Source of the DNA: a virus
Taxonomy: Duplodnaviria > Heunggongvirae > Uroviricota > Caudoviricetes
IMG/VR virus record: IMGVR_UViG_3300045988_158256
DNA: 64,000 bases
Strand: one strand, 5' to 3'
The notes under the pieces are model-generated. The model was not told the origin of the DNA and did no database searches. It was given only the letters and a program-made list of their open reading frames with translations. Below, piece after piece: positions 17,704 through 17,907 of the stretch (position 1 is the stretch's first letter; the number at the start of each line of letters is the position of its first letter). The translations under genes and the position numbers were made by a program.

Positions 17704-17880
17704 ATTAGTGTAATATCGCCTCAATGAATCGTGATTTATAGAGCGATTTAGCTGTTAGCCGCGACAGGCGCGGCGGCAAGTATGGCGGGGTAGTGACTCC
17801 TTCCCCATCATGACGCCGAGTTGCCAGGTTGACCATACGCCTAAGTGGCAACACCGAAGTGCGTTACGAGCTTCCAGTTT

Positions 17881-17907
17881 GCCCATCTTCGGGTGGGCGT
17901 TTTTTTT
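17881..17907 (+). terminator. rho-independent terminator
   Basis: gcccatc-ttcg-ggtgggc hairpin with UUCG loop followed by T8. Confidence 0.7.

Follow-up and report, generated by a model that had tools for sequence, protein, structure and literature searches.

Small regulatory RNAs are known from the leaders and interiors of repressor-controlled prophage operons. In phage P1, the C4 antisense RNA of the immI operon (RF01695) is produced by processing from the leader of its C1-controlled operon. The small RNA DicF (RF00039) is encoded in the dicBF operon of Qin and other lambdoid prophages; RNase E generates its 5' end, its 3' end results from Rho-independent termination inside the operon or from RNase III acting on read-through RNA, and it binds Hfq (PMC5069750). 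Here we describe a locus that shares features with both systems in a 64,000-nucleotide (nt) stretch of tailed-phage DNA (Caudoviricetes; IMG/VR record IMGVR_UViG_3300045988_158256), referred to below as the window. A reading of the letters alone (the original prediction) had singled out 17705-17907, downstream of dmt, as a structured non-coding region and candidate small RNA. The interval belongs to a P1/P7-like phage-plasmid, in which it forms the untranslated 5' leader of the ban operon under C1 control; it is probably a DicF-type small-RNA locus in which a different RNA has taken the place of DicF. The locus is partly known already, as the P1 record carries a 'dicF-like' label here; the RNA in the DicF position is called the slot RNA below.

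The scaffold and the RNA in the DicF position

The segment 17759-17856 resembles lambdoid, Stx and cdtI-type phages at ~81-83% identity, and 4417 of 5426 complete E. coli genomes carry this scaffold, for the most part within chromosomal prophages. Phage mEp460 has the match at 2001-2097, just upstream of DicF (2122-2173; Rfam, 76.7 bits), which is followed by dicB (2252-2536). The homology is therefore with the structured segment that precedes DicF and not with DicF itself, and DicF (gathering score 48 bits) was absent from 17500-18600 of the window even at E <= 10. A pattern scan of IMG/VR for the scaffold returned at least 120 loci with 154 scaffold copies, followed by canonical DicF (90 copies), by the P1-type payload (50) or by other terminator-ended payloads (14). 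Judging from these counts, the scaffold appears to be a conserved platform that carries exchangeable 3' RNAs. In lambdoid prophages on the IMG/VR contigs L148, L157, L174, L189 and L213, the RNAs that follow the scaffold are not canonical DicF and differ in seed and terminator hairpin. This variety suggests that small RNAs of the DicF slot form an exchangeable family.

In the window, the scaffold folds into three hairpins on the plus strand: H1 (17758-17774, GCCGCG/CGCGGC), H2 (17782-17811) and H3 (17820-17852, GUUGCCA/UGGCAAC). The first and last of these had been pointed out in the original prediction, and H2 was located between them. A linker occupies the DicF slot at 17853-17880 (+); one weak hairpin is predicted in it, and it is the candidate seed of a 3' small RNA. 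The UUCG-looped hairpin with T8 that had been described at the end of the interval was confirmed as an intrinsic terminator at 17881-17907 (+), where the stem GCCCAUC-UUCG-GGUGGGC (17881-17898) is followed by G and U8 (T8 at 17900-17907). Upstream of the scaffold, a 5' leader hairpin specific to P1-like phages (17725-17750, +) is present in both the minimum free energy and centroid structures of 17723-17907 and has no comparative support. Folded alone, the terminator reaches -12.8 kcal/mol (z = -3.68), and none of 200 shuffles was equally stable; the folding z is -1.92 for the putative 185-nt transcript (17723-17907) and -2.07 for the scaffold. For transcript and scaffold the thermodynamic signal is thus modest, and the argument that the structure exceeds chance and has a function comes from comparative data, with conservation and compensatory change over hundreds of loci.

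These data concern both the stems and their surroundings. At one pair of H3, 56 sequences have U-A and 13 have C-G. H2 exists in at least five sequence versions, every one of which folds to a stem, and the P1 and P7 types differ in it by a compensatory exchange (CGGGG/CCCCG versus CUGGG/CCCAG). Such compensatory change argues that the structure of the scaffold is under selection. The original prediction had allowed that the region could be simply a dmt 3' untranslated region with no conserved structure; conserved structure was found. The linker between H3 and the terminator has three versions in P1-like phages (window/P1, L089 and D6). The terminator hairpin is constant among P1-like relatives, with a compensatory variant in L089 (GCCCACC/GGUGGGU) and a U-run of 6-8.

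The comparison with the DicF locus can be drawn point by point. Both loci have the same three-hairpin upstream segment (~82% identical) with covarying stems, and both have a short RNA with a Rho-independent terminator in the slot immediately 3' of it. Both lie inside an operon whose distal genes need read-through, and both are prophage-borne and repressor-controlled. However, the P1 slot RNA has another linker and hairpin and is not DicF, and the repressor is DicA/DicC there and P1 C1 here. The dicB gene is likewise found only there, being not present downstream in the P1-type locus according to the P1 record. C4 (window 47168-47255) is also a small regulatory RNA of a C1-controlled operon leader, but it has a different sequence and fold and acts on the messenger RNA (mRNA) of its own operon (ant/icd leader), whereas the slot RNA has no evident cis target. 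In the immI region of the window (47065-47255), Rfam reports an isrK-like RNA (60.8 bits) and C4 antisense RNA (75.9 bits).

The genomic setting is well annotated in relatives. Its identity is 96-98% with P1, P7 and JL22 and reaches 100% with an E. coli phage-plasmid. The large open reading frame (ORF) of dmt spans 15108-17696, with its stop codon at 17694-17696, and the interval sits inside the 676-nt gap between dmt and tRNA-Asn. In the P1 annotation the ban operon is ordered leader, trnA, trnT, tciABC, trnI, ban. The P1 record (AF234172) already lists P1ban, P2ban, Obanab (Op72ab) and a misc_feature named 'dicF-like region', which corresponds to 17814-17917 of the window; the P7 record states that Op(ban) controls the tRNAs.

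A C1 operator pair had been placed at 17687-17715. Both sites were located, are annotated in P1 and P7, and coincide with P1 Op72ab/Oban. Oban-a (formerly Op72a; ATTGCTCTAATAAATTT; 17687-17703, +) has 0 mismatches to the consensus and overlaps the dmt stop. Oban-b (formerly Op72b; 17698-17714, -) has 2 mismatches and overlaps Oban-a, giving a divalent operator. The window contains 14 C1-operator-like sites against 0.36 expected. By moving the AF234172 coordinates through the collinear alignment, we placed P2ban (-35 at 17671-17676, -10 at 17697-17702, +) and P1ban (-35 TTGCTC at 17688-17693, -10 TAATAT at 17711-17716, +); a strict promoter-consensus scan did not call the Pban sites. The interval thus has C1 operators over a sigma-70 promoter, collinear with P1 Op72ab/P1ban/P2ban, as expected of a C1-controlled P1 operon leader. 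Given the -10 at 17711-17716, transcription would be expected to start near 17723, and because two overlapping C1 operators cover Pban, the leader would not be transcribed in the lysogen, and induction or infection would turn it on. The original prediction had offered a repressor-controlled small RNA or a tRNA-operon leader. Both descriptions hold, in view of the operators, the operon that runs on into the tRNAs, and the homology to the DicF precursor.

We propose that Pban fires when C1 is inactivated, and that the transcript would first fold the three-hairpin scaffold and then a ~55-nt module (linker, GC-rich UUCG hairpin, U8) that takes the DicF position. By analogy with DicF, a fraction of transcripts would stop at U8 to give a ~185-nt primary RNA. 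RNase E would trim this to a short 3' small RNA, the hairpin and U-tail of which are of the Hfq-binding type, and the variable linker may act as a seed that pairs with mRNA targets other than those of DicF. The remaining transcripts would read through into the next RNA, the tRNAs, tciABC, trnI and ban, and the terminator hairpin would in this way also set the level of downstream expression.

Alternative explanations for the interval

Several observations weigh against a DicF-type small RNA. An Rfam cmscan, which had been suggested as a check with the original prediction, returned no match in the interval at gathering thresholds or at E <= 10; the only hits were sub-threshold tmRNA-type (transfer-messenger RNA) matches next door, and the interval is a putative small RNA by its homology and anatomy. 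RNAduplex gave z = +0.9 for the slot RNA against ftsZ (-70..+45), in a test so insensitive that genuine DicF reached only z = -0.95. Complementarity of the slot linker to ssrA was likewise not above shuffles, and we have no target in hand. The one P1 RNA-seq preprint that we found does not mention the region, and the z of about -1.9 for the whole interval is unimpressive. Phage D6 has no scaffold but keeps the terminator hairpin directly before the next RNA, so the scaffold is dispensable for the operon. Lastly, over 17716-17910 the window is 99.5% identical to P7 and only 89.6% to P1, whereas over the next ~200 nt (17905-18110) it is at least 99% identical to P1, and the DNA flanking the segment is 99-100% identical. 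This jump in identity to P1 marks an abrupt mosaic boundary at the terminator, and the 89.6% identity to P1 could be recombinational mosaicism and not selection.

Some of these observations would be explained if the interval were a regulatory terminator or attenuator only, ending late dmt transcripts and throttling read-through from Pban with passive hairpins and no trans-acting RNA made. A strong terminator within an operon whose distal genes need read-through fits such a role, as do the retention of the hairpin in D6 and the failure to find a target for the slot RNA in ftsZ or ssrA. However, the terminator of DicF is equally intra-operonic and a functional small RNA results from it all the same (PMC5069750). 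Moreover, thousands of genomes keep the scaffold, with compensatory changes in it, and it always precedes a terminator-ended small RNA. We consider a terminator-only role plausible but rather unlikely.

The mosaic pattern raises the further possibility that a piece of a lambdoid dicBF locus was captured by a P1 ancestor and persists as a functionless relic of recombination. The mosaic distribution, the D6 copy without scaffold and the absence of dicB downstream are in keeping with such an origin, as is the 10% difference of the window and P7 from P1 within the interval against <=1% next door. A relic would not be expected to keep its stems, though: the P1/P7 differences in H2 are compensatory, H3 shows the C-G/U-A exchange and the L089 terminator is a compensatory variant, all of which speak for selection on structure and make this explanation quite improbable.

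It is very improbable that the interval is the 5' half of a tRNA-like domain of the downstream RNA, in which UGGCAAC (17846-17852) would pair with GUUACCG (18292-18298). ARAGORN run at an 80% threshold does call a tmRNA at 17846-18299 with six of seven acceptor pairs, but the relaxed settings yield many spurious calls. UGGCAAC is the 3' strand of H3, where it pairs perfectly and covaries locally; D6 has the downstream RNA without the UGGCAAC sequence, and virulent relatives have a promoter directly before GUUUUCG. Finally, a small protein encoded by the interval is scarcely credible: although hypothetical proteins are annotated over the region in JL22, SJ46 and several lambdoid phage records, the overlapping ORFs (39-55 aa, with those of 45-55 aa on both strands) had no counterpart in Pfam or PHROG, the curated P1 record lists no coding sequence across the interval, substitutions keep stems and not codons, and coding is excluded because homologues show 1-nt indels in loops, in agreement with the earlier view that no credible ORF is present.

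A candidate antisense tag RNA next to the terminator

The original prediction had passed over the 'dicF-like' label of the P1 record, the replacement of DicF and a second RNA in the remaining 465 nt of the leader. This unannotated structured RNA (17911-~18297) starts 4 nt past the terminator, and the 393-nt P1 RNA folds at z = -4.2. A permissive Rfam scan gave a weak match to permuted tmRNA (RF04321) at 17895-18001 (26 bits, gathering 47; E = 0.004) and a sub-threshold score of ~10 bits with RF00023; ARAGORN at default settings and the Rfam tmRNA models at standard thresholds do not call the RNA. The weak match is driven by UAAAU GCA AAC GAU GAU CUG AUG AUG GUA GCG GCC UAA, a tmRNA-like resume context (UAAAU) followed by a 10-codon frame without a start codon, ANDDLMMVAA* (17964-18001, +), with an in-frame UAG 8 codons upstream. 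For comparison, the E. coli tag is ANDENYALAA. Exactly 10 codons and a stop were kept in 131 of 131 copies, which spell the frame in 26 nucleotide versions; for ANDDVVLMAA there are 7 synonymous encodings. In 118 of 119 contexts no ATG, GTG or TTG stands between GCA and the in-frame UAG upstream of it, a figure partly forced by the search pattern. The phage resume codon has U at -5 and A at -4, the positions of U85 and A86 in E. coli tmRNA, and A86 is essential for frame choice (PMC2481249).

The RNA is widespread among phages. BLASTN with 17905-18110 found it in 334 phage records of unrelated groups, always in unannotated gaps. Carriers include Ackermannviridae (for example Vi01), Schitoviridae (PD38), Drexlerviridae (SG01), Deseoctovirus (DS8), Roufvirus (Vibrio phage pYD38-A) and Klebsiella phage-plasmids (L008-L010). 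A pattern scan of IMG/VR for the tag RNA added at least 120 further loci, and the family is all but absent from bacterial chromosomes, unlike tmRNA, with hits in 4 of 185,579 species-representative genomes. In the library of papers that we could search, these tags went unmentioned, as did any natural anti-tmRNA phage RNA. In DS8 and pYD38-A, near-consensus promoters (TTGACA-17/16-TAGATT) end 11 nt before AGUUUUCG; because of these promoters and the tRNAs that follow on the same strand, the strand assignment is secure. The P1 RNA must instead come out of the Pban transcript, right after the hairpin and U8. In the Klebsiella IncY phage-plasmid pSCKLB684-mcr (L007, ~1160-1222), a gene of the TnpB family stops shortly ahead of the tag frame and the 5' antisense domain described below is replaced, leaving a truncated copy.

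The 5' domain (GGUUUUCGUCAUGGUUAGCGACUUUGCGGCGGUUUA; 17911-17946, +) is antisense to nt 67-106 of E. coli tmRNA. With nhmmer, the family profile matched E. coli K-12 ssrA on the reverse strand, and the invariant segment AGUUUUCGUC..GUU.GCGACU..UUGCGG.UUUUUA is the reverse complement of tmRNA nt 68-105, UAAAAAGCCGCAAAAAAUAGUCGCAAACGACGAAAACU. Within this target lie the 3' strand of PK1, the A-rich region (U85/A86 included), the -1 triplet and the resume codon, along with the four to five codons after it. RNAduplex placed the best site at nt 67-106 in all seven lineages (-31.7 to -37.2 kcal/mol, z = -2.1 to -6.4). Shuffles that matched the duplex numbered none of 60 in five lineages, 1 of 60 for the K. 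oxytoca plasmid copy and 3 of 60 for Vi01. The 31 distinct 5' domains all pair with the host site at -30.5 to -38.9 kcal/mol, versus -14 to -24 kcal/mol with their own tag regions, and in the P1 type the duplex with an internal partner (-22.5 kcal/mol) is weaker than that with the host (-36.5 kcal/mol). Lineage-specific changes keep or extend the pairing with the host; one example, in our own reading of the duplex, is PD38 UUAUG opposite host AAUAGUC. The distance from the duplex end to the phage resume codon is 23 nt, versus 22 nt for U68-G90 in tmRNA, and the cross-family alignment A4 has no indels in this part.

Further structure follows the tag frame. An H-type pseudoknot lies 13 nt past the stop (18015-18049, +), with stem S1 at 18015-18020/18032-18037 and S2 at 18026-18029/18046-18049. 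In alignment A4, three of six S1 pairs and four of four S2 pairs show compensatory change, and the covariation score is 0.329 versus 0.146 in shuffled alignments (0/500 as high), with slid controls at <=0.134. A generic pseudoknot search by total base pairs did not separate real from shuffled sequences; position-specific covariation did. The comparative alignment also places a hairpin with the family loop motif GUGUGAUUAAUAA at 18060-18085 (+), followed by a long hairpin (18091-18167, +) with one pair that is U-A or C-G (5 sequences). The base of the long hairpin, CACAACAGGUAAG(A/G)GC...GC(U/C)CUU(A/U)CCGUUGUG, turns up again, in some cases as two copies, in the non-coding arrays of several families of phage (L006, L093, L097 and L058), and its strands in P1 can alternatively pair with GCGUAACAG (18181-18189).

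Toward the 3' end, RNAalifold predicts a long-range helix between the 5' domain and an internal sense-like partner (18255-18274, +); the P1-type duplex has z = -3.5 to -4.0, and L038 differs by three one-sided changes that leave the pairing intact. Next comes a T-arm-like hairpin (18275-18291, +; 9-nt loop), for which a tRNA-like reading is tentative, and then CUGUUAC (18290-18296, +), which is complementary over 7 base pairs to GUAACAG (18183-18189); the P1 copy has no CCA. Positions 18255-18296 are the probable 3' region of the RNA. Three candidate elements were rejected. A P2-like closing helix between the 5' and 3' ends is not a family-wide feature, being significant in the P1 type only (z of about -4; DS8-like RNAs, z = -0.1 to -1.3). 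An upstream PK1 equivalent with the stem CUUUG/CAAAG was 84% paired and showed no compensatory change, and a distant 5' acceptor strand, UGUGGUG, for DS8-like RNAs falls in a promoter spacer.

The RNA is a tmRNA only in part. Like tmRNA (SsrA, including two-piece permuted forms), it has a start-less 10-codon frame that begins GCA AAC GA. and ends in Ala-Ala-stop, U(-5)A(-4), a covarying pseudoknot past the stop and a long-range helix abutting a T-arm-like hairpin. A canonical T-arm, a 7-nt acceptor strand, (N)CCA and a matching 5' strand occur in Ackermannviridae (with four internal lengths), DS8-like phages and Klebsiella phage-plasmids; the tRNA-like part is absent from the SG01 copy and degenerate in the P1 copy. 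Unlike tmRNA, the phage RNA lacks the alanine identity pair G3:U70 in every lineage, as seen in the acceptor stems GCUGUUU/AAACGGC, UGUGGUG/CGCCACA and GGGUGAU/GUCACUC, and its 5' end is uniquely antisense to the host's own tmRNA.

Additional tRNA-like elements were seen in the vicinity of these RNAs. Non-canonical tRNA-like arrays stand beside the tag RNA in PD38 (L004; 1673-1751, ~1818-1885 and ~1950-2010) and Vi01 (L003; 1233-1376), in long unannotated gaps; they have a good T-arm, acceptor pairing and an encoded ACCA, and ARAGORN leaves them uncalled or assigns odd anticodons. In the window, the ban operon continues with tRNA-Asn (18373-18448, +) and tRNA-Thr (18451-18526, +). The 75-nt block before tRNA-Asn (18298-18372) is identical at every column in at least 13 of 15 P1-like sequences, while 18170-18230 is freely variable; two hairpins lie in the block, GGCGCGGUGCGCC and CCGGAGACGUACCCGG, as does a second GGAAGCC motif. 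Right after tRNA-Thr, a tRNA-like T-arm, GAGGG TTCGAAT CCCTA (18577-18593, within 18508-18600), is called by ARAGORN only at the 80% threshold, as a 93-nt 'tRNA-Tyr (gta)' that overlaps the plp ORF on the opposite strand.

A possible two-RNA cassette

A functional anti-tmRNA or tag-replacement role for the neighbouring RNA is a tentative proposal, to which we give somewhat less than even odds. With similar caution, the ban leader may be a two-RNA anti-host cassette, in which a DicF-type small RNA is joined to a tmRNA-annealing tag RNA that silences or re-programs the host trans-translation tag. The hairpin and U8 would then serve as a boundary, by termination or as an RNase E entry site, that exposes the 5' end of the next RNA. 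The invariant 5' domain would anneal to nt 67-106 of the host tmRNA and mask U85/A86 together with the resume codon there, and the RNA would offer its own resume codon and 10-codon tag at near-equal spacing. The outcome could be inhibition of trans-translation only, or substitution of the phage tag template, either through the RNA's own tRNA-like domain where one is present or by docking on host tmRNA as a trans 'coding piece'.

The interval 17705-17907 on its own is of moderate interest, and the neighbouring RNA is the part that should surprise the specialist. For the DicF family, the comparison presents the scaffold as a reusable platform on which different prophages may carry different 3' small RNAs, and the copy in P1, a phage much used in E. 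coli genetics, would offer, under direct C1 control, a clean and inducible system for finding targets. Standard annotation with ARAGORN and Rfam misses the tag RNA in hundreds of sequenced and therapeutic phages. If the proposed role is true, these phages would manipulate ribosome rescue and protein-quality tagging by an RNA mechanism new to description.

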